DNA of 24,656 nt from a bacterium (GCA_041946805.1 JBHGBC010000086.1:1-24656), one strand, 5' to 3'. Counted from the stretch's first letter, positions 2,978 to 23,437 are shown. Notes: generated from the sequence alone by a model not told the origin. A program made the numbers and translations.

Positions 2978-3088
2978 GAAATTCGCCTCGGTATAAGGGT
3001 GATAGGAAGACAGGTAAAAATAGTGCCATATGCCCCGGTGGAAAAGGGTGAGGAGAGAAGGATGGGGTGGAGAGGTATAGAAAACAAA

Positions 3089-3115
3089 GTAGGGGCGGAC
3101 CTAGGTGTCCGCCTC
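3089..3115 (+). repeat. GTAG-REP, copy overlapping the 3' end of the RAYT gene
   Basis: GTAG GGGCGGAC CTAGGT GTCCGCCT C: GTAG followed by a hairpin. Confidence 0.85.
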
Positions 3116-3360
3116 TTGCTTTTCTTTTACCATGTTCTCTGGATTTTCATCATCGAAATTCCACCGTGTTGGATTATTGGCAATATAATCACTGATCTCC
3201 ACGAATTCTGTGTGATTGCGGATGATATGTTCATAATAATTACGCTGCCCCAGCCGCTTGTCATATGGTTGCCAATTTGCGGTTCTAATTTTTTGGATGT
3301 ATTCAAAGGTTGTGACGGTTTTAAACCAGTGAATTATACGGGGTAATGAAACCATGTCCC

Positions 3361-3424
3361 GTGGGAGTGGACTGGGATGTCCGCCGGTAGAATTAACGGG
3401 GCGGACACCTAGGTCCGCCCCTAC
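3361..3424. repeat. Inverted REP pair (REPIN) inside the RAYT coding sequence
   Basis: 3398-3424 on minus reads GTAGGGGCGGACCTAGGTGTCCGCCCC. 3361-3385 on plus reads GTGGGAGTGGACTGGGATGTCCGCC, a decayed copy in the opposite orientation. Confidence 0.8.
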
Positions 3425-3726
3425 AAGGAGATCGGATTTTGCGTTTTCGTATTGGATTGTGATTATCCCATGAACATGGTTGGGCATGATTACCTAAGGC
3501 TGGTTGTCAATGGTTGGGAATTTATGTGTCAATTCCAACCACCGTTTTAGAATCATTCTACCGGCATCATTTATATGCATAATTCCATCTATAATTTCGC
3601 CTAGAAGGCATTGCCGGTTTTGTACGCAAATGGTCACGAAGTAGGAACCATTCCGTGAATAATCGTACCCTTTCAGGCGAATAGACCGCCGAAGATGCTT
3701 CTCTGGATCAGAATGGTTTGCGTTCT

Positions 3727-3752
3727 GTAGGGGCGGACCTTTGTGTCCGCCC
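3727..3752 (+). repeat. GTAG-REP at the 5' end of the RAYT core
   Basis: GTAG GGGCGGAC CTTTGT GTCCGCCC. Confidence 0.85.
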
Positions 3753-3753
3753 T

Positions 3754-3808
3754 CATCCCGGAGTGAATGGAATCGATTTAACTCCTGATGTACGCACTTC
3801 CCGGATGA
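3754..3808 (+). repeat. 55-bp element, copy A (inverted copy B at 24601-24656)
   Basis: The first 22 nt match copy B at 21/22 and the last 19 nt match at 19/19; the middle differs. Confidence 0.85.
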
Positions 3809-3943
3809 ACCAATTTTTGATATCGAATCCAATGGAATTCATTATATTATATATTATTTTTTTAAAATATACAACATGCCTTTTCCAAAGATGTGCCAGA
3901 TAATAATTCAATCGTATAAGCAGATGTTCCAGCCAGTAATGCA

Positions 3944-3970
3944 GGGACGGACCGGGATGCCCGCTCCTAC
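3944..3970 (-). repeat. Degenerate GTAG-REP
   Basis: Minus strand GTAG GAGCGGGC ATCCCG GTCCGTCCC. It is inverted relative to the 3727 copy. Confidence 0.6.
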
Positions 3971-3976
3971 AAATTT

Positions 3977-4005
3977 CCCTCACCCTGACCCTCTGGGAGA
4001 GGGGA
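3977..4005 (+). repeat. CCCTCACCC-type palindromic repeat, copy 1 (internally deleted)
   Basis: CCCTCACCCTGACCCTCTGGGAGAGGGGA. Confidence 0.7.
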
Positions 4006-7150: not shown

Positions 7151-7233
7151 TAGCCGGGGTGGGATTCGAACCCACAAGCCGTTTCCGGCAAGGGATTTTA
7201 AGTCCCTCGTGTATACCGTTCCACCACCCGGCC
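7151..7233 (-). tRNA. tRNA-Leu (anticodon TAA), CCA not encoded
   Basis: Cloverleaf: acceptor GGCCGGG/CCCGGCT plus discriminator A; D arm GTG..GG..CAC; anticodon arm AGGGA CT-TAA-AA TCCCT; long variable arm GCCG GAAA CGGC; T arm GTGGG TTCGAAT CCCAC. Confidence 0.96.
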
Positions 7234-7482: not shown

Positions 7483-9105
7483 TCATTTCAGGGCGTCCCA
7501 GACCGGCTGGACCGGTTCGGACGGTTTGTAATCGTGGATTTTCTGCATCAGGCTGGAGCGGGAAATGTTATACAGCACCTTGGAATTGACCAAGTCCGCC
7601 CGGTTCCGGGCCAGTTCCACCTGCAGGTCTTGCACGTCACGGAAGGTGATCTGGCCGAAGTTTTCGAAATCATAGAGACCGTTCTCCAGGTTGATGGTGG
7701 CCAGATCCACGTTCCGCTGCAGGATGTCCATGCGTTGCTGTTGCAGCTGCAGGTCGCGCAGGTCGGTATAGGTTTGTTGCACCAGGTTCCGTTCCGTGTC
7801 CCAGAGGTTGGTCTGGAGTTGTTTGATGTTTTCCTGGGCGGCGCGGACACGGGCCTTGGTGGCGCCGCCGTCGCTGAACGGCCAGGAAAAAAGCAGTCCC
7901 ACGCCCAGGTTTTGCTGGCCCTCGTCGGTTTGGGAAGCGAAGGAGGAGAGGACCAGATCGGGCTGTTGGCCGAGCATGGCGACGCGCAGATCGTTTTCGG
8001 CCTGGCGGATAGACACACGCAGGGATTCCAATTGCAGGTTGGTGGACGTCACCATCTCGACATAAGCCCGCCCACTGAGAGGCAGCGGCTCCACGTTCAG
8101 TTCATCGGTCAGTTGCAGCTGGGTATCGATGGGAATGCCGAGAACGAGGTTGAAGTTTTCGATCGCGTTGCGCAGGCTGCCCTCCAGTTCGATCAGCGTG
8201 GTCTCGTCCTGTAATACGTTGACCTGAGCCTCGCCGACCTGCTGGCGGGAGGCGTTTTCGTACTCGAACTGGGTTTGGCGGATGAACTCGATCCGGCGTG
8301 ACTGCAGCAGGCGCTCCTTTTGAATGACGAGCTGTTCCTGCAGCCGTTTGATGTTCCAGTAATTGTTGATCACTTGTTGGGTGGTCTGCTTCGCGCGCAT
8401 GTACAGAGAATAATCGGAACGGATGGCCGACAGCCGCGAGTTTTCGATCCGCGTGCGGATCTCTTCCCGGGGGCGGGAGTTGAGGGGGAAATTGTAACTG
8501 GCGGACAGGCTGTACCGGTCTTCATAGTTGTTGCCGTCCGGATTGCCGGCGCCCCGGTCGAAGGCCCCTTCGGAGTCGTGTTCATATTGGAACTCCGGCG
8601 CGATTTCGAGGAACGAGCCGTTTTTGAAGGTTTGGGTGTACCGCGGCCCGACCTGGAACAGGGTGTTGTTTTCGTAACTTTTGACCTCATCGGAGATGAG
8701 TCCCAGATTGGGATCGAGGCGGAAGGTCCCCGTGGAGCGGCGGCGGATGCGTTCATCCAGCGAGGAATCGAGATTGAACTTGGCGCGGTAGTTGCTCTCG
8801 GTCAAATCCAGATTGGCCAGACTTTCATCCACGGAGCTTTCCGCGATCCGCATCTGGGGATTCTGTTCCAAGGCGATATCGATGGCCTGTTGCAGGGTCA
8901 ACACTTGGATCTGGCCTTGCTCCCGGAAATCTTCCTGTTTCAAAAGCCCCCCTCCCACGGTGATGTCTTCGATGTTCCGCGCCACGGCGGGCGTCGGATC
9001 CAGGATTTGGGGACGCGCCGGAAGATCCAATTCACCGCACACACCCGCCGAAGGATCACTCACCATTCCTGCTACGCAAATCCAAACCAATTTCTGCCAT
9101 TTCAC
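7483..9105 (-). CDS. TolC-family outer membrane efflux channel (OMF)
   Basis: 540 aa with an N-terminal hydrophobic signal. LTLQQAIDIALEQNP, two OEP-like repeats with coiled coils (QVINNYWNI; LVQQTYTDL), and beta-strand ends YNFPL and FSWPFSDGG. Last gene of an MFP/RND cluster. Confidence 0.9.
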   Translation of the reverse strand: MKWQKLVWICVAGMVSDPSAGVCGELDLPARPQILDPTPAVARNIEDITVGGGLLKQEDFREQGQIQVLTLQQAIDIALEQNPQMRIAESSVDESLANLDLTESNYRAKFNLDSSLDERIRRRSTGTFRLDPNLGLISDEVKSYENNTLFQVGPRYTQTFKNGSFLEIAPEFQYEHDSEGAFDRGAGNPDGNNYEDRYSLSASYNFPLNSRPREEIRTRIENSRLSAIRSDYSLYMRAKQTTQQVINNYWNIKRLQEQLVIQKERLLQSRRIEFIRQTQFEYENASRQQVGEAQVNVLQDETTLIELEGSLRNAIENFNLVLGIPIDTQLQLTDELNVEPLPLSGRAYVEMVTSTNLQLESLRVSIRQAENDLRVAMLGQQPDLVLSSFASQTDEGQQNLGVGLLFSWPFSDGGATKARVRAAQENIKQLQTNLWDTERNLVQQTYTDLRDLQLQQQRMDILQRNVDLATINLENGLYDFENFGQITFRDVQDLQVELARNRADLVNSKVLYNISRSSLMQKIHDYKPSEPVQPVWDALK

Positions 9106-9196
9106 GTGCTGAACTCCCTCTTTTTCATGGTTCTTACATACAATCCCCTTGGATAGGGGGGATCCACAATCCGTTTCACGCCGCCCCCCGCAGGGT

Positions 9197-12100
9197 TCAC
9201 CGCGAGTCCGGGGCCGCGGGGATGCGGGTGTGGTACAGATACGCGTCTTCCAGGTTGGGTTCGGCGGTTTCCGCTCCCGGACCGGGCGGAGTGTCGGCGA
9301 TTACCCGCATCCGGATACCGTCCGCCGTGTAGGATTGCCCCGCCACCTTGTACCGGCGGCGGATCTCATGCCAGGCCGAGTCGTTGGCCAGGGTGAATTC
9401 CCACACTTTGCCTTGCACCGATTCCACCAGTTCTTCCGGACGGCCGGTGAAGAGGATTTTCCCTTCATCCATCAGCGCCATGGTGCGGCAGCTGTGCGCC
9501 ACGTCATCCACGATATGGGTGGAAAGAATGACCACCCGGTCCTGGCTGAGCCGGACCAGCAAATTGCGGAACCGGACCCGCTCCAGGGGATCGAGGCCGA
9601 CGGTCGGTTCGTCGACGATCAACACCTTGGGAGGACGCACCAGGATCTGGGCCAAGCCGATCCGGCGCATCATGCCGCCGGAAAATTGGCCGACCGGAAT
9701 GTCCAGCTGGTCCAACAAGTTGACTTGCTCGAGGGCGCGGAGAATGGCGTTCCGCCGTTCCGTCCGGCGCCGGATGCCTTTCAGCAAGGCGAAATAATCC
9801 AGGTATTGATACGCCGTCAAATCCGTGTACACACCGAAATATTGCGGCAGGTACCCGATCAGTTTCTTCGCGTGCTTGGCCTCGGTTTTCATGTCATATC
9901 CACAGATGGACAGATACCCGCGGGTGGCCTGATCGATCCCGGCCAGCAGCCGCAACAAGGTGGTTTTTCCCGCCCCGTTGGGCCCCAAGAGGCCGAAGAG
10001 GCCTGCTTCGATGGTGAGGGAGACCGTGTCCAGCGCCTTGGTCCGCGCCAAGGTGGACACCGGCTCCTCCGCCGAGGAGAGGGACACGGGGAGGAATCCC
10101 GGCGCGGGCGCCAGGACGGGCAGAGATTGGATCAGGGATTTGCCCCGGGCCGAGATTTTCTCCAGGCGGCTGACCGGATAAATCCGGGTCAGGTGGTCGA
10201 TCTGGACCCTCAACGGTTCCGCGCGGGGCTGGATCCGGCGGTACGCGGTCAGCGTTTCATGGATCCGTTCGCGCCGGCGGCGGCTCCAGAAGACCAGGAT
10301 CCAGCGCCAGCTGGCCACGTAACGAATGGCCCGCAAAGCCAATTTGGCGATATCCTCCACGATGAATGAAAAGCCCGGCACGATCAGAAGGGTGAGGATG
10401 GTCGAGCTGGCCAGCCCGCCGATCACGCAGATGGCGAAGGGGGACCATTGCTCCTCGCCGGTGGCCATGGGGATGAGGCCCAGGATGGCGGTGATGACGG
10501 TCATGAAGATCGGGCGCAGGCGGTGGTAGCCCGAGACCATGATGGCGCGCTGGCGGGGGAAGTGTTTCTCTTTCCGGAGATAGCCGGAGTAGTGAATCAT
10601 CAGGATGGCGCTGTTGGGAAGAATACCGAGCAGGAAAATACCGCCCAGGGCCGCCATCTCGGTGAAGGCGCTGCCGGTGAGCAGGAAGATCCACACAATG
10701 CCCACCAGCGCCAGGGGGATCGCCAGCATGATCACCAACGGCTGGCTGAAGGACTCGAACAGCGCGGCGATGCACATGTACAGCAGGATGAGGGCCAGAA
10801 GCACAATGTTCCACAGGGCCGTCACCATTTCATCCATCTGCCGAGACTGTCCCCCCAGGGTCATCCGGTAGCCGGCGGGAACGGGATAGGTGTCGAGCAG
10901 TTGCTTCACCACCGATTCCACTTCGGAATATTTGACGTTCGGGGCGGTTTCGAACCGGATGCGGCCGATCCGTTCACGGTTTTCGCGCTGGATGTTGCTT
11001 TGGCCCCGCCGGACCTGGAGGGTGCCGATTTCCTCCAGCGACACCGTAGTGCCCAGGCTGGGCGAATAGATCGGGATTTGCTTGAGCTCCTCGAAGCGGA
11101 TGCCTTCCAGTTCCTTGGTTTCGGCTTTGTTGAGATCGTTAGGATCCTCGATCTGGGCGAAAATGATGTCGATGTCCTCGTCGCCCTTTTTCATCTGAAT
11201 GGTGGAGTAATCACCGCGGCGCTGGGCCACCTGGATGGACTGAGCCACCAGTTGCGGGGTGATTTGCAGCACGGCGGCCGTATCGCGGTCCAGTTGGAAA
11301 TGGATTTCCAGGGGGCCGGGCTCGCTTTGGTTGTACACGTCGCGCACGCCGTTGATCTGCATGAGGATTTCGGCGAAATTCTCGGCCAGGGTGTTGATTT
11401 GGTTGTACTCCGGCCCGCGGATTTCGATCTCTCCGCCGCTGCCGGTTTCGACGGGCGGCGTTTCGTTTTCGCCCCGGGTGCGCGAACGGTTAAAGGTCAC
11501 CTCGGCCGTGGCGAAGTTTTCCAGGAACGGCCGGAGTTCCTCCTGAATGGAGGCCGACTCGCGTTTCCGGTTCTCCTTGTCCACCAGGAGGATGCGCAGC
11601 GAGGCGAAATCGTCCTGAATCCAGGAATGGAGGTTCTTGATTTCGGGCACCTGCCTGAGAATCATGTCCTCCACGCGGTTGACGACCTGCAGGGTGTAAT
11701 CCTGTTTGGTGCCGTTGGGGAGGTAGACGAAGACTTCGAAGGAATCCTCGTCCTTGGGGGCCTCCAGGACATCCTGCTGGATGCCGCTCATGGTGTAGTA
11801 ATACGTGTACAGCACCACCAGGATGACGGCGATCAGAAAGCGGACCCGGTGGCGCAGGCAGCTTTTCAGGATGGTCCCATATTTCCGCCGGCACTGGGCC
11901 ATGGTGGGATGAGGAATCTTCCGCAAGACTCCGAGGACCTGGAGCTTGGCCGATGTCCACCGCGTCCGCCAGCGTCCTCCCGAAAAGCGGCCGCCGGAGC
12001 CGGCGAGCAGCGCCTGCTTGGCGTTGAGGAGCTGCAGGACCTTGGCGGTCAGCATCGGGACCAGGGTCAACGCCACCAGCATGGAGATCACGGTGGGGAA

Positions 12101-13504
12101 GATGATCGCCAGCGCCCCTTCGATGAAGGTCAGCCGGATCTGCCCCTCCACGAACACGATGGGCAAAAAGACCACCACGTTGGTCAGGGTCAGGGCGAAG
12201 ATGGCCTTGCCGACTTCATGGCTGCCCACCACCGCCGAGATGATGGGATCCCGGCCGCGCTCGTGATGGCGGAACACGTTTTCCAGCACGACAATGGCGC
12301 TGTCGATCAAGGTGCCGATCCCGACGGCCAGGCCGATCAAGGTAATGATGTTGATCGACATGTTGGTGAAGTACATCGCGTTGAAGGCGGCGATGAGGCT
12401 GATGGGGATGACCAGGCAGATGATCATCGAGACGCGCACGTTGCGGATGAAGAGATACAGCACGCCGATCGAGAGCAGGATGCCGATGAGGGCCAGTTTG
12501 GAGAGTTCCTTGAGCAGGTCCAGGATCTCATCCGCCACTTCCCAGGTCACGGAGAGTTCATAGCCCTCGGGGAGTTCCTTGTTGATCTGGTCAATGACCT
12601 TATGGGTGCGGCGTGAGAGTTCGATGGGATTGACCAGGGCTTCCTTCTCCAGGTCGACGCCCAGGGCCGGCTTGCCGTCCACCCGGCGCAGCCAGCGGCG
12701 GGAGTGGGAGGTGTTTTCCACTACTCCCAGATGGCGCACGGCGATGTTCCCCTCGCCCTTCACAACCACATCCTCGATTTCGGACGTGTCGGAGAACTGC
12801 CCATCCAGCCGGACGAAGTAATTCCGGTCGCCTTCCTCGACATCGCCCAGGAAAACCGGTTCGTTGGCGTAGGTCTGGACCCGGTTGATCACCCGCCAGA
12901 GGGGCACGCCGAATTCGCGCAGGCGGTCCTGCAGGATCGTGACATCCACGGTCCGCCGTTTTCCGCCCCAGATCTCGGCCTGGGCCACGCCATCGATATC
13001 CTGCAGCCGCTGCCGGTAGCGTTCGGTGTCGATCATCTCCAGGTAGGGATCGTCGCGCGGCCCTTTGAGAACCAGGTCCATGAATTCCTTGTTGAACCAG
13101 GAGGTTTCGAAGGGGAAAGCGTCGATGTAGATGGAGCGCCTGGGGAACGTGCGGCGGAAGCGGTCCAGCCGGTCCTGCAGGTCCACGATGCGGTACTTGA
13201 CGTTCGTGCCGAATTCGAACTCGATGGGGAAAAAGCAGCCCCAGCGGCTGCTGAAGACGCGGATGTTCTTCACGTTGGGCAGCTGGGCGATTTCGCCCTC
13301 GATGGGCATGATGATCCGCCGTTCCATCTCCTCGACGCTCATGTTGTCGCGGACCCGGCAGAAAGCAGCCCCGTAGGGAGGGGAAATGTCGGGAAGAATC
13401 TGCATGGGGATCTTGGGCAGCGACACGATGCCGAGCATCACGATCGCGGCGAAGAACATGATGGTGGTTATGGGGCGGTGTACCGAAAACTGGGATAGTT
13501 TCAT
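9197..13504 (-). CDS. RND (AcrB/MdtB-like) permease fused C-terminally to an ABC ATPase domain
   Basis: Single 1435-aa ORF. RND part: FSVHRPIT, GIGTLIDSAIVVLEN, LTLVPML, FESFSQPLVIMLAIPLA, RLRPIFMT, GGLASSTILTL. NBD from about 10213 to 9197: Walker A GPNGAGKT (9962-9985), Q-loop YLPQ, signature FSGGM, Walker B LIVDE, D-loop GLDP, H-loop STH. Confidence 0.93.
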   Translation of the reverse strand: MKLSQFSVHRPITTIMFFAAIVMLGIVSLPKIPMQILPDISPPYGAAFCRVRDNMSVEEMERRIIMPIEGEIAQLPNVKNIRVFSSRWGCFFPIEFEFGTNVKYRIVDLQDRLDRFRRTFPRRSIYIDAFPFETSWFNKEFMDLVLKGPRDDPYLEMIDTERYRQRLQDIDGVAQAEIWGGKRRTVDVTILQDRLREFGVPLWRVINRVQTYANEPVFLGDVEEGDRNYFVRLDGQFSDTSEIEDVVVKGEGNIAVRHLGVVENTSHSRRWLRRVDGKPALGVDLEKEALVNPIELSRRTHKVIDQINKELPEGYELSVTWEVADEILDLLKELSKLALIGILLSIGVLYLFIRNVRVSMIICLVIPISLIAAFNAMYFTNMSINIITLIGLAVGIGTLIDSAIVVLENVFRHHERGRDPIISAVVGSHEVGKAIFALTLTNVVVFLPIVFVEGQIRLTFIEGALAIIFPTVISMLVALTLVPMLTAKVLQLLNAKQALLAGSGGRFSGGRWRTRWTSAKLQVLGVLRKIPHPTMAQCRRKYGTILKSCLRHRVRFLIAVILVVLYTYYYTMSGIQQDVLEAPKDEDSFEVFVYLPNGTKQDYTLQVVNRVEDMILRQVPEIKNLHSWIQDDFASLRILLVDKENRKRESASIQEELRPFLENFATAEVTFNRSRTRGENETPPVETGSGGEIEIRGPEYNQINTLAENFAEILMQINGVRDVYNQSEPGPLEIHFQLDRDTAAVLQITPQLVAQSIQVAQRRGDYSTIQMKKGDEDIDIIFAQIEDPNDLNKAETKELEGIRFEELKQIPIYSPSLGTTVSLEEIGTLQVRRGQSNIQRENRERIGRIRFETAPNVKYSEVESVVKQLLDTYPVPAGYRMTLGGQSRQMDEMVTALWNIVLLALILLYMCIAALFESFSQPLVIMLAIPLALVGIVWIFLLTGSAFTEMAALGGIFLLGILPNSAILMIHYSGYLRKEKHFPRQRAIMVSGYHRLRPIFMTVITAILGLIPMATGEEQWSPFAICVIGGLASSTILTLLIVPGFSFIVEDIAKLALRAIRYVASWRWILVFWSRRRRERIHETLTAYRRIQPRAEPLRVQIDHLTRIYPVSRLEKISARGKSLIQSLPVLAPAPGFLPVSLSSAEEPVSTLARTKALDTVSLTIEAGLFGLLGPNGAGKTTLLRLLAGIDQATRGYLSICGYDMKTEAKHAKKLIGYLPQYFGVYTDLTAYQYLDYFALLKGIRRRTERRNAILRALEQVNLLDQLDIPVGQFSGGMMRRIGLAQILVRPPKVLIVDEPTVGLDPLERVRFRNLLVRLSQDRVVILSTHIVDDVAHSCRTMALMDEGKILFTGRPEELVESVQGKVWEFTLANDSAWHEIRRRYKVAGQSYTADGIRMRVIADTPPGPGAETAEPNLEDAYLYHTRIPAAPDSR

Positions 13505-13507
13505 GAT

Positions 13508-16315
13508 TTAATGCCAGTGCCAACCTCCGCGCATTTGTCCTTGGTTGCGGTTGCGGCGGAACGCCATGGTATTTTCATCCCCTTCCACGATGACGCGCGT
13601 TTCCGAATGGGCGCGGCTTTTTTTGATGGGATCCAGGAAGGGGACCTGCAGCACCTTGTTTTCCGGATCCACCGCCGCGAAGATCGGGCGGTGGGGCACT
13701 GTGAGGTTCAGGGTCTGTTCATCGTGGGCGTCCAGCCAGAGATCGCGGAACACATAATCCATTTCGGTTTCCACGAAAATCGGGACCGCCATCCGCCCGG
13801 CGCCGTGATTCTTGACCCGGATGAGAATCTGGTATTCCACTCCGTTGCGGTCCTTGTTGGGAACGATCTTGGCGTCGGCCTGGACGATCTCGTATTCCGG
13901 CAGCGCGCTTCCCCGGATCCATTGTTCCTGGAACCATTGCAGATCCTGGCCGTAGGCGGCCTGCGCCCGCGCCAGGAAGTCGTCCACCGGCATTTCCCGG
14001 TTCCCATAATCCTGGAAGATGCCCTTGAGCAGATCCCACCATTTGTCGTCCCCAAGCAGATGGTGAATCATGCGGAACAGGCCCTCGCCGCGCACCCGCT
14101 CCAGTTGGGGGTATTCCCCGTTGCGGTGCAGTTCGAGGAGGGAGCTGCGGGAGGCGATGGACAGGGGGAGGCTGGTGTCGCCGCCGACATCGTATTGGAG
14201 TTCCGCGCGCCGCCGCCAGGGATTTTGTTCGAGCAATTTGGAGACATAGCGGGAAAGGTCTTCCTCGAGCCAGAAGGCCAGTTCGCCGGTGGGATGCAGG
14301 GAATAGTCGAAATAGGCGGCGATTAATTTCTTGTAGAATTGCTCGTGCAGGGAGCGAAGGATGTCGGGCAAGCGCAGGAAAAAAGGAATGGTGCGGGGAT
14401 TGCGGTCCAGGCGGTCCAAGAGCCACATGCGTTCGTGCAAATACCCCACCAGGTTTTCGGGAATGAGCAGGATGCCGGGCATCCGGCCGGCGGAGGCGGT
14501 CAGGGCGGGGGTGTGAATTTTCTTGAACCACGAAGCCGTGGCCGGTTCGCCGCGTTCCCGGGCGCGTTGGTCCCCGTCGCGCCGGTCCTCGGCGGGAGCC
14601 ATTTCCGCCGTGGCCTCGTAGGGGATTTCGATCAGGGTGAGTTGCGGCAGAGGGAGGCGTCCCAGTTTGTCGTGCACGTATTCCTGCTGGTCCTTGACCT
14701 CTTCGAGATACACCTGCGCCTGGTAGCCGTGGGACGGCAGATGATAAAACCGGATGTGGTATCCGAATTTTTGGCTGTCGACATACGCGTATTCGCCCCA
14801 GTACATCTCCAACTCGTCGACGAGGTACAGGGTCTTCCACCGTTCCACATGCCAGCCGTCTTCCTCGGTTTCGCTTTCCAGGCGGCCCGCGAATGCCCCC
14901 CGCTGCCCGGGCGGCAGCTGGAGGACCACCTCGGCCTCGAAGAGGTCCTCATCCAGGGGGACCCAATGGTCACGTCGTTCCGTTTTGACCTTCCGCCACG
15001 GGTTGGGATACCAGCTTCCCTCCAGGGCGGTGAAGCGCGGGTGGAAATACGCGGGCCGGCCGTGGTAGCGGATTTCCACTTGTGCTTCGGTTCCGGCGGC
15101 CAGCGGCTCCGGAAAATCGAATTGGAGCCGGGCGCCGGAGCGGGTAAACGGACAAGGTTCGCCGCCGAAGGCGATCCGGTCCACGACAAACCGGGGATCG
15201 AGTTCCACTCCCAGGAATTTCAGGGATTCCCGCGCCACGAAGGTCATCCGTGCTTCCAGGGACAAGCGGTCGTAGACACGGGACGGTTTCAATGTCAGCT
15301 GATATTGCTTGACGTCCACGGGCATGGCGGGGAGTTCCATGCGCAGCCCCTGTTCCCGTTCCTGTTCACTTTGGCGGTCGGCCAGGATCCGTTCCTGATA
15401 TTGGAAGGAAGCCCAGATCATGCCCGCGGCGGTGAGGGTGAGCACGCCGGTCAAAAACAGCCGGTAGGTCCAGCCGAGATGGCGGTCGGGGCGCAGGTTG
15501 GTGAGAAACCGCATCAAGGTGGAAACCGAGAACAGCGATTGGCGCTGCCCCCGGGGCACGATCCAACGCTGGGGTTCCTGCCGCCGCAGGTAAAGGGGGG
15601 CCAGGGTCAAAAATACGATGCCCGCCAGGAAATGAACCGCCAGCGGGAAAAGGTATTCCCCGTACGCGATGCGTGCTCCCAGGGTGGGAGAGGAATCCAT
15701 CAGGCGCTCGAGCAGGGCCGGCACATCGAGAAACACGCGTCCCTGGATGCCCGCGAAGACTAACGCCGTACCCAGCGCCGCGCCCATCAGCAAGGCGGCG
15801 AAGTCGTGCTTGAAGAACGTGCGCATGGCGATCGCGAAGGCCGCGACCGGCACAATGACCGGCAGGTACAGCAGCACGAACGCGGCCCAAAACGGTTGCC
15901 AGACGACGGGCGCGTGCCCGTACAGGTATTGCCAGAGGCCCAGGGAAAACAAGCCCACGGCGCTGAGAGGCAGCATGATCACCAGGACGCCCAAAAGACG
16001 GCCCACCATGATTTCCATGGAACCCGTGGGGAGGGGGAACAGGATTTTGTCCATACCCGTCCGGCCCAGGCGGCCGCACAGGTCGAGGGCCAGGGCAATG
16101 GCGCCCAGGGACAGAATGGCGAGCATCAGCCCGAAACTGGGATGTTGAAAGCTGTAGGCGGAATGCAGGTAATAGCCTTCGCCGGCCCGGGCGAGATAGT
16201 CGGTCCGGGCAAACAAAGATATGGCTCCGATCAGCCCCAACAGCAACCAGAAGCGCCATCCCCGGCTGCTGATGCGGGCTTCGTACCAGGCGATCAACAG
16301 GCTTTTCCGGATCAT
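13508..16315 (-). CDS. ABC-2-type permease domain fused to an extracytoplasmic M1 (aminopeptidase N)-like domain lacking HEXXH
   Basis: The N-terminal ~300 aa are multi-TM (IAWYEAR..., MDKILFPLP....IMVGR). An M1-like beta region follows (QYQLTL, VEIRYHG, WYP), then the C-terminal M1 signature RG..LFRMIHHLLGDD....LLK..F..Y......DDF.......GQDLQWFQEQWIRG..LP. The stop codon is 3 bp from the next start. Confidence 0.8.
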   Translation of the reverse strand: MIRKSLLIAWYEARISSRGWRFWLLLGLIGAISLFARTDYLARAGEGYYLHSAYSFQHPSFGLMLAILSLGAIALALDLCGRLGRTGMDKILFPLPTGSMEIMVGRLLGVLVIMLPLSAVGLFSLGLWQYLYGHAPVVWQPFWAAFVLLYLPVIVPVAAFAIAMRTFFKHDFAALLMGAALGTALVFAGIQGRVFLDVPALLERLMDSSPTLGARIAYGEYLFPLAVHFLAGIVFLTLAPLYLRRQEPQRWIVPRGQRQSLFSVSTLMRFLTNLRPDRHLGWTYRLFLTGVLTLTAAGMIWASFQYQERILADRQSEQEREQGLRMELPAMPVDVKQYQLTLKPSRVYDRLSLEARMTFVARESLKFLGVELDPRFVVDRIAFGGEPCPFTRSGARLQFDFPEPLAAGTEAQVEIRYHGRPAYFHPRFTALEGSWYPNPWRKVKTERRDHWVPLDEDLFEAEVVLQLPPGQRGAFAGRLESETEEDGWHVERWKTLYLVDELEMYWGEYAYVDSQKFGYHIRFYHLPSHGYQAQVYLEEVKDQQEYVHDKLGRLPLPQLTLIEIPYEATAEMAPAEDRRDGDQRARERGEPATASWFKKIHTPALTASAGRMPGILLIPENLVGYLHERMWLLDRLDRNPRTIPFFLRLPDILRSLHEQFYKKLIAAYFDYSLHPTGELAFWLEEDLSRYVSKLLEQNPWRRRAELQYDVGGDTSLPLSIASRSSLLELHRNGEYPQLERVRGEGLFRMIHHLLGDDKWWDLLKGIFQDYGNREMPVDDFLARAQAAYGQDLQWFQEQWIRGSALPEYEIVQADAKIVPNKDRNGVEYQILIRVKNHGAGRMAVPIFVETEMDYVFRDLWLDAHDEQTLNLTVPHRPIFAAVDPENKVLQVPFLDPIKKSRAHSETRVIVEGDENTMAFRRNRNQGQMRGGWHWH

Positions 16316-16382
16316 GATCTCCTCAGAATGGATCTTCCCCCGTCCGGAGAGCGAACGGGTCTTCCCGATAGCATGGCCCGCT

Positions 16383-19300
16383 TCAGGTTTCCTGCTGTTC
16401 AGGAATCCATTTGCCCAATCCCAACGCGGCGAAGAACCGCTTGATGGCGGCCATGGCGTCCTCGAAGGCCGCGTACACGATGGGGATGATCACCAGGGTC
16501 AACACCGTGGAAGAGAGCATCCCGCCGATGACCGCCACTGCCATGGGGGCGCGGATTTCGGCGCCCTCGCCGAATCCTAGGGCCAGGGGCAGCAGGCCCA
16601 CCACGGTGGTCAGGGTAGTCATGAGGATCGGGCGCAGGCGGCGGCAGCCGGCGTGCACGATAGCCTCGTTCATATCCTGGCCCATGTCCCGCCGCAAGTA
16701 GTTGATGTAATCCACCAGCACGATGGCGTTGTTCACCACGATGCCAGCCAGCATGATGATGCCGATATAGCCCATCAGGTTGATGGTCTGGCCGGTCAGA
16801 TAGAAGGCCCAGATCACGCCGATGGCGCCCAGGGGCATGGTGAACATGATGACGAACGGATGCATGAGCGACTCGAACAGGGAAGCCATGACCATGTACA
16901 CCAGGATCAGGGCGAGGATCAAGGCGAATTTCAGGCGGTTGAATGAATCCTGGCGCCGTTCCTCCTCTCCTCCGAAGCGGATGTAGTAACCGGTGGGCAG
17001 TTGCATCTCGCCGATTTGCGCGCGGACGGAGGTGATGGCGTCGCTGAGTTTCTGATTTTCGCCCACGTCGGCCAGCACCCGGGCGATGCGTTCCTGTCCC
17101 CGGTGGATGATCTCGCGGGGGCCGGGTTTGATTTCCACCTGGACCAGGCTGCCGAGCGTGACCGCGCGGCCGGTGCCGGTGGGGATCAGGGTATCGAGCA
17201 ATTCGGGAAGGTTCATTTTTCCGTCTCCCAATTGCACGCGGACGTCCTTGGTCTGTTCCACGTCCTGCAGGCTGGTGGCCACCAGGCCGCGCAACTGGCT
17301 CTGCACCAGCGAGATGAGTTGCTGCTGATCCAGGTTGTATTCATTCATGAGGACCCGGTCCGGGATCAGGTGTACTTCCGGATTCCCTTCCAGGATGGTG
17401 GTGCGGACGTTGGCCACTTCGGGGATCAAATCCATCCGGCTTTTGACCTGTTGCGCCAGGTCGGCCAGCGTTTCCAGACTGCGTCCCCGGATTTCCACCA
17501 CGATGGCGGCCTTTTCGGAGCCGATGAGCGTGGCCAGCGAGGTCTGGGAAAGCAGGAAGGTGATATCCAATCCATTGATATCCTTGGCCCGGGGTTCGAG
17601 GTATTCGATGATCTGGGGCACGTTCATTTTCGCCCCCTTGCGCAAGGAGACCATCAGCTCGGCCGTATGGGACCCTTCCGGCTCCTCGTCCACCGCGCCG
17701 GTGTCTTCCGGCTTGGGGCCGATCCGGGTGAAGATATGTTCGATGTTCTCGCCCAAATCCTGGGAAAGCCACCCTTCGATGATCTTGGCCGCCCGCTCGG
17801 TTCCTTCCAGCCGCGTCCCGGCCGGCATGCGCAGTTTGACGATGAACTGGGATTCGGCGGCCTGGGGGATGAATTCCTGCTTCAAGTCATCCAGGATGGG
17901 ATAGCACGAACAGCACAGCAACACGACCACCACGCATACGAGAAGCCGGTGCCGCATCGTCCAGGCCAGGAAGCGGGGATAGAAGCCGGAGTATTCCTCC
18001 TCCACATCCATGACCTGCTTGAGATACCGCGAGCAGAGCGCGGGGATCATCATGAGCGCGACCACCAGCGAGGCCATCAGCGAGAAAACCACGGTCAGCG
18101 CCTGTTCCTTGAACAATTGCGCGGTCACGCCGCCCATGTAGGCGATGGGCAAAAAGACCACCACCGTGGTCAGCGTGGAGGAAGTGATGGCGGAAGCCAC
18201 CTCGCCCGTGCCGGTCATGGCGGCCTGATAGGGCGAATCGCCGATCTGCCGCCGCCGGAAGATGTTTTCCACGACGACGATGGCGTTGTCCACCAGCATC
18301 CCGCAGCCCAGGGCCAGGCCGCCCAGGGTCATGATGTTGAGGGACAGGCCCATGAAGTACATCAGGTTGAAGGTCGCCAGAATGGATACGGGGATGGAGA
18401 GCGAGACGATCAAGGTCGACCGGAAATTGCGCAAGAACAGCAACAGAATCAGGGCGGCCAGTCCGCTGCCCTGGATGGCGTTGCTCTTTACTTCGGAAAT
18501 GGCCTGGTTGATGAACAGCGACTGATCGTAGGCGATCACCGCCGTGACATCCTTGGGGATGAGGCTGGGTTCGGCGCCGGTGGACAACCATCCTTCCTGA
18601 TCGTTTTGGGGTTTGTTCTGCTGCTGGGATTGGGCGGTCAGAACCGCGAGTTCCTTGTCCTTGCCCAGGAATTCCCGCACCGTCCGCACCACTTCGACCG
18701 TGTTGCTGCCCGCTTCTTTGTAAAGAGAAATGCCCACGCCGGCCTGGCCATCCATGTGGACCGCGTCCACCGGCTCCTGAAATCCCCAGGTCACCTCGCC
18801 CAGGTCGGTCATGTAGATGGGGACGCCGGAGGAGTAGCCGACCACGGTGCGGACCACCTGGTCGAGGTTCTTGATTTCCCCCACGGCGCGGATCATGTAG
18901 CGCTGGTTGCCTTCCTCCACCCAGCCGCCCGAGGCGCTGACGTTGGCCTGATCGACGGCCTGAGAGACGTTGGCGAGAGTCAGGCCATAGAAATGGAGGA
19001 GCTCCGGGTCCAGCTGGCATTTCATCTCGGGGATCAGACCGCCTGTCACTTCCGCGCGGGCGACCCCGGAAAGGCGTTCCAGGGCGGGGCCGATGGTGCG
19101 GTAGGCCAGATAGCGGACTTCATCCAGGCCGCGGGTGCTGTATAAGCCCAGGGTCATGATGGGCAGGGCGTTGGGATCGTAGCGGAGGGTTTGGATCTCT
19201 TCGATTTCCTCGATGTTGCTGCCCTGGACGTTTTTCTTCACTTCCAGCAGGGCGAAATCCATGTCGGTGCCCCAGTTGAAGTCGATGATGATGGCGCCGG

Positions 19301-19658
19301 AATCGGCCCGGGACACGCTGGATACCTGGTCCACGCCCTTGATGGTGGTCAACCGTCCCTCGAGCGGTTCGACCACGATGCGCTCGATTTCCTGGGGCGC
19401 CAGCCCCGGGGCGTCAGCCTTCACGGTAATCCGGGGAGCGCGCAGATCGGGGAAGAGGTTGGTGGGCAATTTGTTGAGCGAAATCCACCCCAGCATGATC
19501 ACGCCGATGAAAAACATGCTGATGGTCACGGGATAGCGCACGGCGAAGGCGGCGGCGCCCATGCCCCGCTTGTTCACACCCTCTTGTTGAGTATCCACCG
19601 GTTGCAGTTCGTCTCCGGGTGAGGAATTCAAGGATAGAGTGTCTTTTTCACTCGTCAT
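16383..19658 (-). CDS. RND (AcrB/MdtB/SwrC-like) efflux permease
   Basis: FAVRYPVT, LFPDL, GMLVDNAIVVVENIFR, FESLMHPFVIMFTMP, GIVVNNAIVLVD, RLRPILMTT, GGMLSSTVLTL. The ORF-track start at 19781 overlaps the upstream gene, so ATG 19658 was chosen (alternatives 19703 and 19563). Confidence 0.93.
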   Translation of the reverse strand: MTSEKDTLSLNSSPGDELQPVDTQQEGVNKRGMGAAAFAVRYPVTISMFFIGVIMLGWISLNKLPTNLFPDLRAPRITVKADAPGLAPQEIERIVVEPLEGRLTTIKGVDQVSSVSRADSGAIIIDFNWGTDMDFALLEVKKNVQGSNIEEIEEIQTLRYDPNALPIMTLGLYSTRGLDEVRYLAYRTIGPALERLSGVARAEVTGGLIPEMKCQLDPELLHFYGLTLANVSQAVDQANVSASGGWVEEGNQRYMIRAVGEIKNLDQVVRTVVGYSSGVPIYMTDLGEVTWGFQEPVDAVHMDGQAGVGISLYKEAGSNTVEVVRTVREFLGKDKELAVLTAQSQQQNKPQNDQEGWLSTGAEPSLIPKDVTAVIAYDQSLFINQAISEVKSNAIQGSGLAALILLLFLRNFRSTLIVSLSIPVSILATFNLMYFMGLSLNIMTLGGLALGCGMLVDNAIVVVENIFRRRQIGDSPYQAAMTGTGEVASAITSSTLTTVVVFLPIAYMGGVTAQLFKEQALTVVFSLMASLVVALMMIPALCSRYLKQVMDVEEEYSGFYPRFLAWTMRHRLLVCVVVVLLCCSCYPILDDLKQEFIPQAAESQFIVKLRMPAGTRLEGTERAAKIIEGWLSQDLGENIEHIFTRIGPKPEDTGAVDEEPEGSHTAELMVSLRKGAKMNVPQIIEYLEPRAKDINGLDITFLLSQTSLATLIGSEKAAIVVEIRGRSLETLADLAQQVKSRMDLIPEVANVRTTILEGNPEVHLIPDRVLMNEYNLDQQQLISLVQSQLRGLVATSLQDVEQTKDVRVQLGDGKMNLPELLDTLIPTGTGRAVTLGSLVQVEIKPGPREIIHRGQERIARVLADVGENQKLSDAITSVRAQIGEMQLPTGYYIRFGGEEERRQDSFNRLKFALILALILVYMVMASLFESLMHPFVIMFTMPLGAIGVIWAFYLTGQTINLMGYIGIIMLAGIVVNNAIVLVDYINYLRRDMGQDMNEAIVHAGCRRLRPILMTTLTTVVGLLPLALGFGEGAEIRAPMAVAVIGGMLSSTVLTLVIIPIVYAAFEDAMAAIKRFFAALGLGKWIPEQQET

Positions 19659-19725
19659 GGTCGTGATCCACGTGTATTGCCCGAAGGGGAATCCAATCAG
19701 CATTCCGCCCCGGGCGGATTCCTTC

Positions 19726-20664
19726 CTAGGTGAACCATTCCGCGGTGCGCCGGAGGCGGCGGAACAGATAATCGAGCACAAAACCCACCAGTCCGAACAC
19801 GAAAAACCGGTTCATGAGCATGGGCATATAGGGAGATATCTTATTGAAAATCAAGGATATGGCGGAAAAAATGAGCATGGGCGCCGACAAGGCCGTATTC
19901 ATGGAAGCGGACCCCATCCCGTCCTGGCGGGGGGCCGGGGGAATGACCGGGAAGGTGGAATAAAAGATCTGGACCGGCCCCAGTTGTTGCAACCAAAAAA
20001 AGTGGATGCCGAATATCAACAGCGCCACGAGACCGGTGGCCATGCTATGGCGGGTGAAGGTGGAAATCAGCACCGTGACCGATCCCACCGCGAACGAGGA
20101 AGTCACCACAAGGGGGATGATCAACCAGCGCCCCTCGGTGTACGCGATGAACCGGCTGAAGAAGAATACCACGGCCGTGCACAGCGCCAACTGCCACAAA
20201 GTGATGGTGATCAGTTGGATCACAATCAATGAGCTCCGGCGGATGGGCTGGCTCCAGAGGATTTCCAGCGTATCTTCATCCCGTTCCCGCGGCAGCAGAC
20301 TCATGGCGGTCAGAATGGTCACCACACAGAAATATATATAGCAGTAATATAGCAAATCCCGCGGATTATCCGCCAGATTGCGGGAGATCACCCAGCCGAA
20401 AAAGGCGAAGGCCCCGATGAGCGAGAGAAACACCTCGATGTGGAGAATCCGCCGGGTGGTGTATAGAAACAACTTGAACCAATAGCTGGTTTCCCACCAT
20501 ATCCATTGGATTCCATTCTTTGCGAGCCATCCGGCGTTCTTCCCGGCTTGCCCCAAACGCCGGAACCAGCCCTCGCGGGTGGAGGGTCCATAGGGAAGGT
20601 CGTGTGTTCGTTCCAATCCATCCATCATGATTCCCACGGCCGAGCGGCCTTCTGTGTTGATCAA
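19726..20664 (-). CDS. ABC-2-type transporter permease
   Basis: About six hydrophobic segments and the coupling-helix motif LLPRERDEDTLEILWSQPIRR. Directly downstream of an ABC ATPase. The start may be ATG 20628. Confidence 0.82.
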   Translation of the reverse strand: MINTEGRSAVGIMMDGLERTHDLPYGPSTREGWFRRLGQAGKNAGWLAKNGIQWIWWETSYWFKLFLYTTRRILHIEVFLSLIGAFAFFGWVISRNLADNPRDLLYYCYIYFCVVTILTAMSLLPRERDEDTLEILWSQPIRRSSLIVIQLITITLWQLALCTAVVFFFSRFIAYTEGRWLIIPLVVTSSFAVGSVTVLISTFTRHSMATGLVALLIFGIHFFWLQQLGPVQIFYSTFPVIPPAPRQDGMGSASMNTALSAPMLIFSAISLIFNKISPYMPMLMNRFFVFGLVGFVLDYLFRRLRRTAEWFT

Positions 20665-20800
20665 ATCACCTCAATCCCGGCGCCTGTTTCACAAGCGCGC
20701 GGGTGGAAAGTAGCAGGCCCTCGCAGGGAGGAGGGTCCATGCCTGGCGGGCCTCACCCCGGCGTTCGCTTCCAGGGCGGATGGCAGAAATTCCGCCTCCC

Positions 20801-21679
<879 letters not shown>

Positions 21680-21943
21680 GCCGGAAAACTCCCCTCGCGG
21701 GAGGTTGTGCGCCGTTTCATGTTCCCTCGCCGTCCGGGCCGCCCCGCCTTCCAGGGGTTTCCCGCGGCGTGGCCGGGAAACAAGCCCTACGCCTTCTTTT
21801 CGAACCGTGGATTTCCCTGCACCCGTCTTCCGCGGAACGTCTCAGGAAATCCGCCGCGCGATTGCCCGGGAGGATTTCCACGCCCGGGCCCCTTCGCCGG
21901 TTTCCCGGATCACCGGGCATCCAGGAACGCCAAGTATTCAGGA

Positions 21944-23437
21944 TCACCGGGGGGGATTCGAGGATTGGACCGGTTTGGCGAGGCTTTCAAAATTCACATC
22001 CTCCCGGACGGTGATATTGACGTCCACTCCATTAGTCAGGGTTTCGTATCCCAACACCACCAGCAGGTCGCCCTCGCGCAATCCCTCGACGATTTCCACC
22101 TGTTCCCGGTTCTCGATCCCCAGAGTGATGACCCGCTCCTCCGCGATGTAGGGAATGTCCTGCAGGTTGGCGGAGTCAGACCGGTTTCCGGGCAGGATCG
22201 CCGGGCCGGTGGCTTCGGGCACGGCGTCCGAGGCCACGGCCACATTTTCGAGGCGCCCCGCCATGACCAGTTGTTTGTTCCCGCCGTCCGGGACGGGAGC
22301 ATCGATCCGCAGTTCGCTGGTGGCCCCGCGGATTTCATCCTGGGGTTTTTCTTTCACCACGTAGACCACCTGGCGGTTGTTGCGCAGCAGCACCAGTTCG
22401 CGGGGGATGCTGATGGCGTCGAGACGTTCTTCGGTGATGATTCGGGCCTTGGCGAACATGCCCGGCCGCAGTTCATGGTTCGGGTTGTCGAGCAGCACAT
22501 TGACGGTATATGTGCGCGTGTTGGCGTTGAGGGCCGTGGAAATGTCGGAGACGGTTCCCTTGTAGAGCGTCCCCGCGCGCGAGTAGATTTCCACCTCCAC
22601 GTCCTGTCCGACCTTCACCGCTTCCAGGTCTTTGGCGGGCACGTCGAGAGCCGCGTAAACCTTCTCGATATTGGCCACGCGGAACAGGATGGTCCCGCTG
22701 CCCACGGTTTGGCCGTTCAGCAAGGTCAGGTCGGTTTCGCCCCCCTGCTTCTGGGAGGTGGAAACGCTTTGCTTGGCCGGCAACAGCACGCCGTCAAAGG
22801 GCGCCAGGATCGGCACTTTTTCCAATTCCTGACGCATTTTTTGGAGGGCCATCTGGCGGGATTCGATATTACGGAGCGTATTTTGGTACTGGTTTTCCTG
22901 CTGGATGCGCTTCAAGACCGCCTGATCGTATTCATACTTGGAAATTGCGCCCCGCGCGTACATGGCCTTTTTGAATTCCTCATCCTTGTAGGCCTGCATC
23001 AGGGTGGCGCTGGCGGGGCGGACGCTTTCCGATGCCAGCCGCAGCTGCAAATCGCCCTCGTTGATGTTGAGGTTCAGCTCCCGGTCGTCCATCCGGGCCA
23101 AAACAGCATTTTTTTTGACCTCATCCCCTTCCAGCCAGCGTTGGGTGAAATAAATCCGGCCGGTCATCTCGGGTTTGATCTCGATTTCCTTGATGGGCAC
23201 CACGGTCCCCACGGCCTGCAAGTAGGCGTACATCCGGCCGCGGTTCACCTGCTGGACGGTTACAGGAATTTTGAACTTGAGTTTCTCCGGTTTTCCCCAT
23301 GTCCCGGCGTTTTCTCCCGGATTCCCGCTCTTGGCCGTGGCTCCCACACTCTGCGCCGTTTCCGTATTCCGGCCGCAACTCAACACCAGCGAAATTGCCA
23401 AGATTAACAACATGCCTGTCAATGCCGATTTCTTCAT
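21944..23437 (-). CDS. Efflux RND periplasmic adaptor (membrane fusion protein), probable lipoprotein
   Basis: Lipobox-like LVLSC. Lipoyl half-motifs EGDEVKKNAVLARMD and ILAPFDG flank a coiled coil. Also TRTYTV...DNPNHELRPGMFA and VEIVEGLREGDLLVV.G. Confidence 0.93.
   Translation of the reverse strand: MKKSALTGMLLILAISLVLSCGRNTETAQSVGATAKSGNPGENAGTWGKPEKLKFKIPVTVQQVNRGRMYAYLQAVGTVVPIKEIEIKPEMTGRIYFTQRWLEGDEVKKNAVLARMDDRELNLNINEGDLQLRLASESVRPASATLMQAYKDEEFKKAMYARGAISKYEYDQAVLKRIQQENQYQNTLRNIESRQMALQKMRQELEKVPILAPFDGVLLPAKQSVSTSQKQGGETDLTLLNGQTVGSGTILFRVANIEKVYAALDVPAKDLEAVKVGQDVEVEIYSRAGTLYKGTVSDISTALNANTRTYTVNVLLDNPNHELRPGMFAKARIITEERLDAISIPRELVLLRNNRQVVYVVKEKPQDEIRGATSELRIDAPVPDGGNKQLVMAGRLENVAVASDAVPEATGPAILPGNRSDSANLQDIPYIAEERVITLGIENREQVEIVEGLREGDLLVVLGYETLTNGVDVNITVREDVNFESLAKPVQSSNPPR

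Follow-up and report, generated by a model that had tools for sequence, protein, structure and literature searches.

The bacterial contig JBHGBC010000086.1 (assembly GCA_041946805.1), analysed over its whole stretch of 24,656 nucleotides (the window), carries an operon in which genes for the parts of an ATP-binding cassette (ABC) exporter are interleaved with genes for a resistance-nodulation-division (RND) efflux pump, and in which one ABC ATPase is covalently joined to an RND permease. We give a probability of about 0.45 to the reading that an ATP-driven heterodimeric transporter of the ABC-2 type is tethered to an RND trimer resembling MdtBC and hands its substrate over to this trimer, which then expels it by ion drive. 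RND and ABC tripartite pumps are taught as separate and separately energised systems; here the two would work in one conserved machine, and they meet in one polypeptide.

The operon lies on the minus strand at positions 7483-23437 (all coordinates refer to the whole stretch), and its parts were assigned from open reading frame (ORF) calls, Pfam and NCBIfam. Seven co-directional minus-strand ORFs follow one another in a row from 23437 down to 7483, with intergenic gaps of 3 to 264 nt. They encode a periplasmic adaptor of the membrane fusion protein (MFP) family, a free ABC ATPase or nucleotide-binding domain (NBD), a small ABC-2-type subunit with a transmembrane domain (TMD1), an RND permease (RND1), a 935-residue protein that joins a second transmembrane domain (TMD) to an M1-like fold, the fusion of a second RND permease with an ATPase (RND2::NBD) and a TolC-like outer-membrane factor (OMF). 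The first-pass annotation of this DNA had described seven such genes with a symmetric list of parts, and it was right on both counts: all seven genes are where it had placed them, and they comprise two intact NBDs, two paralogous ABC-2 TMDs, two RND paralogues, one adaptor and one OMF. Both RND proteins can be aligned end to end with solved RND pumps (MdtB, 9lyq_B, and ZneA) and have the arrangement of 12 transmembrane (TM) helices and two large periplasmic loops. The adaptor and OMF genes share the operon with both of them, at two paralogous RND genes per single adaptor. The adaptor starts with a lipoprotein-type signal with its terminal cysteine and is of the RND type by TIGR01730; its MacA- and DevB-type scores in NCBIfam are weak (42 bits for MacA at a cut-off of 342), and no family match was found for its C-terminal extension of about 130 residues.

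The joining of RND2 to an ATPase is widespread. When fusion residues 1000-1435, which cover the junction and the ATPase part, were used as a database query (E <= 1e-3; 7998 candidates scored), at least 2469 proteins matched. Among the matches listed, PF00873 and PF00005 were both present in 120 of 120, the sources were many and included contigs of 4.3-8.1 Mb, and there were two size classes: fusions of about 1430 residues in assemblies labelled Omnitrophota and Hinthialibacter, and fusions of 1550-1600 residues in Bacteroidota (Fulvivirga, Marinoscillum, Imperialibacter), Calditrichota, Latescibacteria and Chlorobi-labelled assemblies. The ESM Atlas held several clusters of 139-189 RND::NBD proteins. 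Among 41 related genomes, the fusion match was one stop-free open frame in 22, the window's own genome not counted. It was full length and in one frame in 18 of the 20 genomes of the window's family and in four of six others of the same order, the remaining two being cut by contig ends, and it was found in none of nine genomes of other orders in the class and in none of six more distant genomes. A DNA contig from another study (run X2) spans positions 9205-11364 without a gap, junction included, and the linker residue W1073 is invariant in an alignment of 14 fusions from several phyla. The covalent link between RND pump and ATPase, which had at first been read from this one stretch, is thus upheld by database proteins, by related genomes and by independently obtained DNA.

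Six additional hydrophobic helices distinguish the fusions of the longer class; two of them lie between RND TM12 and strand beta-1 of the NBD, and four are inserted after beta-1 (A1 columns ~1120-1390; P0051-P0109; L002 10697-15466). The idea that these helices, in the Bacteroidota fusions of 1560-1600 residues, are a fused copy of TMD1 was rejected, since hhalign gave it a probability of 0.4% and since all four Bacteroidales loci have a separate TMD1 homologue 3' of the fusion gene. In one genome of another order (G028), the same operon occurs at positions 1592-16276 of contig C12 (locus L087) with the NBD after RND2 in at least three frames and the M1-like gene in two; these split genes reflect either decay or indel errors of that assembly.

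The genes of the operon were found to stay together across phyla. A locus search from the fusion alignment, which used generic NBD peptide patterns, returned the fusion in five of 80 loci, the other 75 being mostly matches to stand-alone NBDs. In L001, whose fusion is 63% identical to that of the window, the same seven genes stand in the same order. Around fusions within the window's taxonomic order, 15 of 20 loci have all seven genes in the window's arrangement, four are cut by contig ends and one is an orphan copy (L106). Four Bacteroidales loci (L002, L004, L005 and L025) are rearranged into the order NBD, TMD-M1 protein, OMF, MFP, RND1, RND2::NBD, TMD1. Their TMD-M1 proteins, of 1111-1175 residues, match ABC2_membrane_2, have a weak M1 match and, unlike that of the window, carry a Golvesin_C domain at the C-terminus (E 1e-10 to 2e-17; L002 820-4281, L004 4063-7413, L005 3784-7308, L025 1622-4957). 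The small membrane protein encoded directly 3' of the fusion in these loci is a homologue of TMD1 (hhalign 76-93%).

The 935-residue protein occurs in 25 of the 41 related genomes, which are exactly the 24 with the fusion and G028 with its frameshifted operon, and in none of the other 16; two genomes of the window's own family, G006 (94% complete) and G017 (82% complete), have neither the operon nor this protein. These co-occurrence counts come from related genomes, which are not independent samples, and carry no statistic. Loss of synteny between the ABC and RND genes in other genomes had been named beforehand as an observation that would speak against a joint system. As synteny holds across phyla, in the same or a rearranged order, this objection falls away.

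Orphan RND::NBD copies of about 45% identity to the window's fusion were also observed, in L106 (G020:C97, 7156-13935) and L108 (G004:C264, a 7.2-kb contig). No RND1, ABC-2 or M1-like gene was found beside them by BLAST at E <= 1e-10 (for L106 in 16.4 kb, of which about 9.6 kb precede the copy and 2.5 kb follow it). The L106 copy is preceded by a gene for an extracytoplasmic function (ECF) sigma factor and two unknown ORFs, and L106 and L108 have no neighbours in common. These copies may provide alternative RND2 subunits for the main operon.

Both ATPases look active from their motifs. In the fused one, the Walker A motif, the Q-loop, the FSGGM signature, the Walker B pair D1298-E1299 and H1330 are invariant in 14 diverse aligned fusions. 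Motifs were also counted in a larger set of 121 proteins (P0001-P0121), from which 12 shorter than 1300 residues were excluded. In the 109 proteins kept, Walker A and DEPT were found in every one, STH in 108 and xSGGM in 106. The free ATPase has all its catalytic motifs intact in the alignment (GPNGAGKT, LPQ, FSGGM, VDEPT and STH). The two are 43% identical and share a C-terminal domain that ends in PNLEDAY, and the fused NBD of the window has an insert of about 45 residues past strand beta-1.

The membrane subunits that could pair with these ATPases are TMD1 and the N-terminal part of the 935-residue protein. The latter has 34 homologues, which are called hypothetical or are nameless at their source except for two with transporter-type names from JGI, one of them that of a NosY-like permease. 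Its AlphaFold2 (AF2) model, built from a 35-row alignment (predicted local distance difference test, pLDDT, 82; predicted TM-score, pTM, 0.78), has an N-terminal amphipathic helix, seven TM helices within residues 20-325 (20-45, 59-86, 99-132, 140-167, 171-192, 218-242 and 282-325) and then a multi-domain soluble part. No direct Pfam match was obtained for this TMD. It can be related to the TMD1 family by hhalign (probability 81.5%, E 1e-5, 119 columns), and its Bacteroidales equivalents match ABC2_membrane_2 (E 3e-10). TMD1 has a conserved cytoplasmic motif, LLPRERxxxTLExLWSQP, between TM2 and TM3, and the TM2-TM3 loop is conserved in both TMDs. In type-V ABC exporters, the coupling helix sits in this loop. 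The two TMDs are thus paralogous, as a heterodimeric ABC-2 transporter would require. Pfam, NCBIfam and the AF2 model gave no match to the FtsX/MacB family; each TMD has six or seven helices, and the NBDs are not fused to these TMDs.

The soluble part of the 935-residue protein resembles the M1 aminopeptidases IRAP, ERAP1/2 and PSA by Foldseek (E 4e-21 to ~1e-20). The glutamate of the GXMEN motif (E620, in xPEN) is invariant over 35 aligned rows, and the zinc site HEXXH-X18-E is absent from all 35: a variable H(E/D)QFY stands in its place, the second histidine never occurs and the third ligand, a glutamate, is not conserved. Since the zinc ligands are missing, the domain is a pseudopeptidase, and the earlier label of "TMD-pseudopeptidase" describes the protein well. 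The odd number of TM helices places the M1-like domain probably in the periplasm, according to the model.

The RND pair resembles MdtB and MdtC of E. coli. MdtB is the best solved-structure match of both, and MdtC and MdtB are their best NCBIfam equivalog matches; they are not orthologous to these proteins, as the scores are 410 and 272 bits for MdtC (cut-off 1774) and 373 and 264 bits for MdtB (cut-off 1584), and as the duplication in the tree is a separate one. This tree was built with FastTree from 43 RND sequences (17 of the 121 fusions, four fusions from loci, partners, paralogues and unlinked RNDs), with SH-like support only and with some rows flagged for compositional bias. In it, all fused RNDs fall together in a clade of 22 rows, one of which is the G028 copy (support 100). 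The seven rows of RND1 partners make up a second clade (support 100), which is sister to the first (support 97), so that RND1 and RND2 come from one duplication. In both clades, the window's lineage separates from Bacteroidales in the same way. The grouping of the fused RNDs would agree with the fusion having arisen once. The nearest relatives of the pair are RNDs of plain adaptor-plus-RND loci (L088, L089 and L090, in a clade with support 96), and the RND of L091 is more distant.

The energy source of the RND part turns on its proton relay. According to a review (PMC8277102), the AcrB relay comprises the triad D407, D408 and K940 plus R971 and T978. Four of these residues (D407, D408, K940 and R971) carry charges that the review calls important, and none of the RND proteins studied can do without the central acidic residues. 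In RND2, as aligned to MdtB (9lyq_B), D401-S402 replaces the D-D pair and N964 replaces the lysine. The relay positions were carried over to these alignments by AcrB numbering. RND1 has D-N in TM4 and N in the K940 column of TM10, so both RND proteins keep the equivalents of D407, R971 and T978 (D401, R995 and T1002 in RND2) and have lost two of the five, D408 and K940. The reduced relay is general among the fusions: D401, R995, R997 and T1002 are invariant in 14 aligned fusions, the TM4 pair in the 109 counted proteins is DN in 82, DS in 20, DT in four, DA in two and unmatched in one, with D-D in none, and the TM11 motif RxRPxxxT is present in 105 of the 109. In an anchored alignment, the K940 column is N in all 105 with this motif, the other four being without the anchor. 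The signature of D-N/S plus N is common to all orthologues in L001, L002, L004, L005, L025 and L087.

Two comparisons bear on what this loss means. Eight other RND paralogues of the same genome served as a control; D-D...K is present in five of them and D-D...R in one, and the remaining two resemble metal pumps. As a counter-control, the same D-N / N signature was found in the plain adaptor-plus-RND loci L089 (6062-10384), L090 (1618-6215) and L091 (4467-9328), and no ABC genes were found in the 8-16 kb fetched around them. The relay variant is therefore older than the association with ABC genes and the fusion, so that the missing D408 and K940 equivalents are weakened as a mark of ATP coupling and are no proof that ATP has taken the place of proton drive. 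The kept residues, together with the ABC-free relatives, suggest that the variant still couples to an ion gradient, and the reduced relay is probably a functional ion-coupling site. The initial premise that the RND pumps are proton-driven accordingly needs qualification, as two of the five relay residues are lost in both proteins. The RND subgroup with the reduced relay in L089, L090 and L091 may itself be uncharacterised.

Collectively, these features suggest a single envelope-spanning exporter with two engines. The first would be an ABC-2 heterodimer made of the free NBD, the NBD fused to RND2, TMD1 and the TMD of the 935-residue protein. The second would be an MdtBC-like RND trimer, probably RND1(2)RND2(1), docked to one lipoprotein adaptor and one TolC-like channel. 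MdtBC has a stoichiometry of B2C. With RND1(2)RND2(1), each trimer would have one fused NBD and hence one ABC module, in keeping with the fact that the free NBD, TMD1 and the TMD-M1 protein are each encoded once. The path from TM12 of RND2 through a linker of about 36 residues to the NBD would hold the ABC module at the flank of the RND trimer. ATP binding and hydrolysis at two consensus sites would then move the ABC-2 TMDs and the periplasmic zinc-less M1 "clamshell", and this movement could extract or capture a substrate from the inner membrane or the periplasm. The substrate would next be passed to the RND porter domain and finally be expelled through adaptor and channel, driven by an ion-motive force acting through the reduced relay (D401, R995 and T1002).

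Modelling and expression data add some detail to this proposal. An AF2 model of residues 877-1435 (TM7-12, linker and NBD; 20-row alignment; pLDDT 77, pTM 0.55) prolongs TM12 into one long helix, beyond which two short ones cover WRW..FW-RRRR (pLDDT 57-65) and precede the NBD; this suggests that the linker is a short, non-rigid tether. A four-chain prediction with the fused NBD (1148-1375), the free NBD (1-232), TMD1 (40-312) and the TMD of the 935-residue protein (1-250) gave a score of 0.27, below the mark of 0.32, and counts neither for nor against binding. Two metatranscriptome libraries from one study hold contigs of a relative that is 90-95% identical. One RNA-library contig of 4113 nt carries the 5' part of RND1, TMD1, the free NBD and the adaptor; it is a weak hint of co-transcription, as contigs cannot prove a single transcript and DNA contamination is possible. 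No RNA-library contig bridged the RND2-NBD junction.

Several observations weigh against such an exporter. First, the AF2 model from TM7 through the linker to the NBD does not place the NBD in any fixed position below or next to the RND helices. Second, gene adjacency is silent on which NBD pairs with which TMD, and the pairings that adjacency would suggest are opposite in the window and in Bacteroidales. Third, ion drive of the RND part is an assumption in the face of the D408/K940 losses in both RND proteins, given that most paralogues in the genome keep D-D...K. Fourth, the orphan copy in G020, and perhaps that in G004, would imply either that a fused NBD works with no TMD genes of its own in cis or that it borrows the parts of the main operon. 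Fifth, the flanking genes, which encode an M29 peptidase, a sulfatase and a class-I amidotransferase, gave no clue to a substrate or regulator nearby.

An alternative is that ATP powers or gates the RND pump itself. Hydrolysis at the NBD dimer would then mechanically drive or license RND2 through the covalent link and the ABC-2 helices, and the ABC-2 part would be a transmission rather than a path for the substrate. The N or S at D408 and the N at K940 in both RND proteins and in the orthologues examined, the complete lack of D-D among the fusions and the D-D...K of the genome's other paralogues are in line with this mechanism, as are the attachment of the NBD to an RND protein rather than to an ABC TMD, its strictly conserved catalytic motifs, the short linker with its invariant tryptophan, and the L106 copy with no ABC-2 TMD genes in the stretch covered. 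Precedents for ABC proteins that work as mechanotransducers, without carrying a substrate over the membrane, are MacB, LolCDE, FtsEX and NosDFY. However, the D-N / N signature is shared by L089 and L090, which are sisters of the pair, and by the more distant L091, and being older than the fusion it is presumably compatible with ion drive. The invariance of D401 and the near-universal RxRPxxxT motif would be unexpected if ion coupling had been abandoned. Furthermore, RND1, which presumably provides two of the three protomers, has no NBD, and the low pTM of the AF2 model gives no confident packing of NBD on RND. On balance, ATP drive or gating of RND2 seems unlikely to us. The same low expectation applies to its boldest form, the first RND pump with an ATP-driven or ATP-gated cycle and no proton relay, in which the zinc-less M1 clamshell would be an ATP-operated periplasmic substrate loader.

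It is still more doubtful that the operon encodes two pumps with one duct, that is, separate ABC-2 and RND engines for different substrates that share an adaptor and channel or are merely co-regulated, with the fusion securing co-localisation or equal dosage. The whole locus has a single adaptor and a single OMF, and MacAB-TolC and DevBCA are examples of tripartite ABC pumps that work with an adaptor and TolC. The tether appears flexible in the AF2 model, and gene order varies between phyla, so that no strict pattern of translational coupling is kept. However, one would expect a neutral or merely regulatory fusion to come apart again in some lineages; the fused RNDs of several phyla form one clade, both domains were present in every listed match, and the only unfused copy seen is the frameshifted one of G028. 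The 25 genomes with the operon, out of 41, are also those with the 935-residue protein. In addition, the adaptor scores as RND-type and only weakly as MacA- or DevB-type, and the ABC-2 TMDs are not of the adaptor-binding MacB/FtsX type. The remaining probability goes to other functions, for example a role in assembly or signalling.

An assembly or frameshift error that merged two adjacent genes, which the fragmented assembly of the window (315 contigs) and the multi-frame NBD of G028 might bring to mind, is excluded by the stop-free frame in related genomes, the abundance of database matches, the junction-spanning contig and the conserved W1073.

Compared to known systems, the proposed exporter of ABC-2 heterodimer and RND trimer combines features that are otherwise found apart. 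MdtABC-TolC of E. coli and MuxABC-OpmB likewise have two RND paralogues from one duplication, one RND-type adaptor and an OMF in one operon, and MdtBC is named as a heterotrimer in the review cited above (PMC8277102). In contrast to both, the system described here has neither the D408 nor the K940 equivalent, bears an ABC ATPase at the C-terminus of one RND protein and adds a second ATPase and two ABC-2 subunits. Like MacAB-TolC, it would hydrolyse ATP in the cytoplasm, and it has an ABC membrane subunit with a large, probably periplasmic domain, along with an adaptor and a TolC-like channel. It differs in that its ABC-2 TMDs have six or seven helices, in place of the four-helix MacB/FtsX type, in that its NBDs are unfused to their own TMDs, and in its RND subunits and RND-type adaptor. 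MacAB-TolC works by mechanotransmission.

In two-step efflux, single-component inner-membrane pumps cooperate with AcrAB-TolC to move substrates from the cytoplasm to the periplasm and then outside. The hand-off proposed here would follow the same logic; the known partners are unlinked and uncoupled, whereas these are co-encoded and co-occurring and are joined in one polypeptide. NosDFY and FtsEX resemble the system in having an ABC-2-like subunit with a large periplasmic domain that is not a transport domain, and in the use of a dead enzyme fold as effector (EnvC there, the zinc-less M1 fold here). Unlike in those systems, the M1 fold is fused to the TMD, and the whole is tied to RND, adaptor and OMF. 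The M1 aminopeptidases APN, ERAP1/2, IRAP and PSA have the same multi-domain fold, and the GXMEN glutamate is kept as E620; here the fold has no zinc site and is fused to an ABC-2 domain. A literature search found no description of RND-ABC fusion proteins or of ABC-2/M1 fusion proteins, although most papers in subscription journals lay outside the search and absence from print is unproven. The first-pass annotation had named no characterised system of this architecture and had allowed for uncharacterised homologues, and this agrees with the literature searched and with the abundance of homologues.

The architecture occurs in thousands of sequences from several phyla, cultivable Cytophagales included, and it would offer a function for a large class of proteins that are annotated merely as "efflux RND transporter permease subunit" or "hypothetical protein". 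Should the ABC module feed the RND pump, this would be a hard-wired case of two-step efflux, which has so far been inferred genetically for unlinked pumps only. If ATP drives the RND pump, the rule that RND transporters are ion-driven would be overturned. Either way, it provides a tractable experimental system for studying the coupling of two transport engines.

Features of the operon, all on the minus strand, in the order of transcription
Feature	Position (strand)	Size or residues	Basis of assignment
Periplasmic adaptor (MFP)	21944..23437 (-)	497 aa	HlyD_D23 E 4e-26; TIGR01730 RND_mfp 167.3 bits (cut-off 94.9), residues 59-364
Free ABC ATPase (NBD), DrrA/GldA-like	20801..21679 (-)	292 aa	ABC_tran E 1e-29; drrA 175 bits, under its cut-off
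TMD1, small ABC-2-type membrane subunit	19726..20664 (-)	<=312 aa	ABC2_membrane_2 E 6e-11
RND1, complete RND permease	16383..19703 (-)	1059-1106 aa, depending on start	ACR_tran E 4e-233, two stretches
935-aa protein, TMD plus M1-like fold	13508..16315 (-)	935 aa	Pfam: Peptidase_M1 only, sub-threshold, 16.3 bits (cut-off 27.7)
TMD of the 935-aa protein	15341..16315 (-)	residues 1-325	ABC-2-like six-helix core plus seventh helix
Zinc-less M1-aminopeptidase fold of the 935-aa protein	13583..15319 (-)	residues 333-911	
RND2::NBD fusion	9197..13504 (-)	1435 aa, one open frame	ACR_tran residues 4-1048; ABC_tran residues 1158-1301
RND2 permease part	10325..13504 (-)	residues 1-1060	ACR_tran E 1.5e-162, profile positions 2-1019 of 1021
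Linker, TM12 to NBD	10217..10324 (-)	residues 1061-1096	hydrophobic/basic WRWxxxFW-RRRR segment
Fused ABC ATPase	9197..10216 (-)	residues 1097-1435 plus stop codon	ABC_tran E 1e-26
OMF, TolC-like	7483..9105 (-)	540 aa	OEP E 5.5e-34, three stretches; TIGR01844 64.8 bits, under its cut-off of 225

Two gene starts can be placed in more than one way. The start of TMD1 is uncertain, with an alternative ATG at 20628. The longest ORF of RND1 (start at 19781) runs 56 nt into TMD1, and the in-frame ATGs at 19703, 19658 and 19562 all lie past the TMD1 stop; one of these later starts is more likely than 19781 in view of orthologue frames of 1053-1149 residues.

A scan of the operon for promoters and terminators gave counts not above those of shuffled sequences. 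The spacer between the adaptor and free NBD genes (21680-21943, 264 nt) is G+C-rich and has several GGGAAAYCC-like repeats, and contigs of relatives have 167 different letters in its place. A repeat element was considered for this spacer and dropped, as there was a single 27-base match elsewhere in the genome. At positions 3001-4000 of the window, the G+C content is 0.44, compared to about 0.60 elsewhere, and two small minus-strand ORFs in this part (3101-3487 and 3494-3832) gave no Pfam match. The operon is bounded at its 3' end by a tRNA gene at 7151-7233 on the minus strand (Rfam tRNA, 58.8 bits), which lies 250 nt past the OMF gene.

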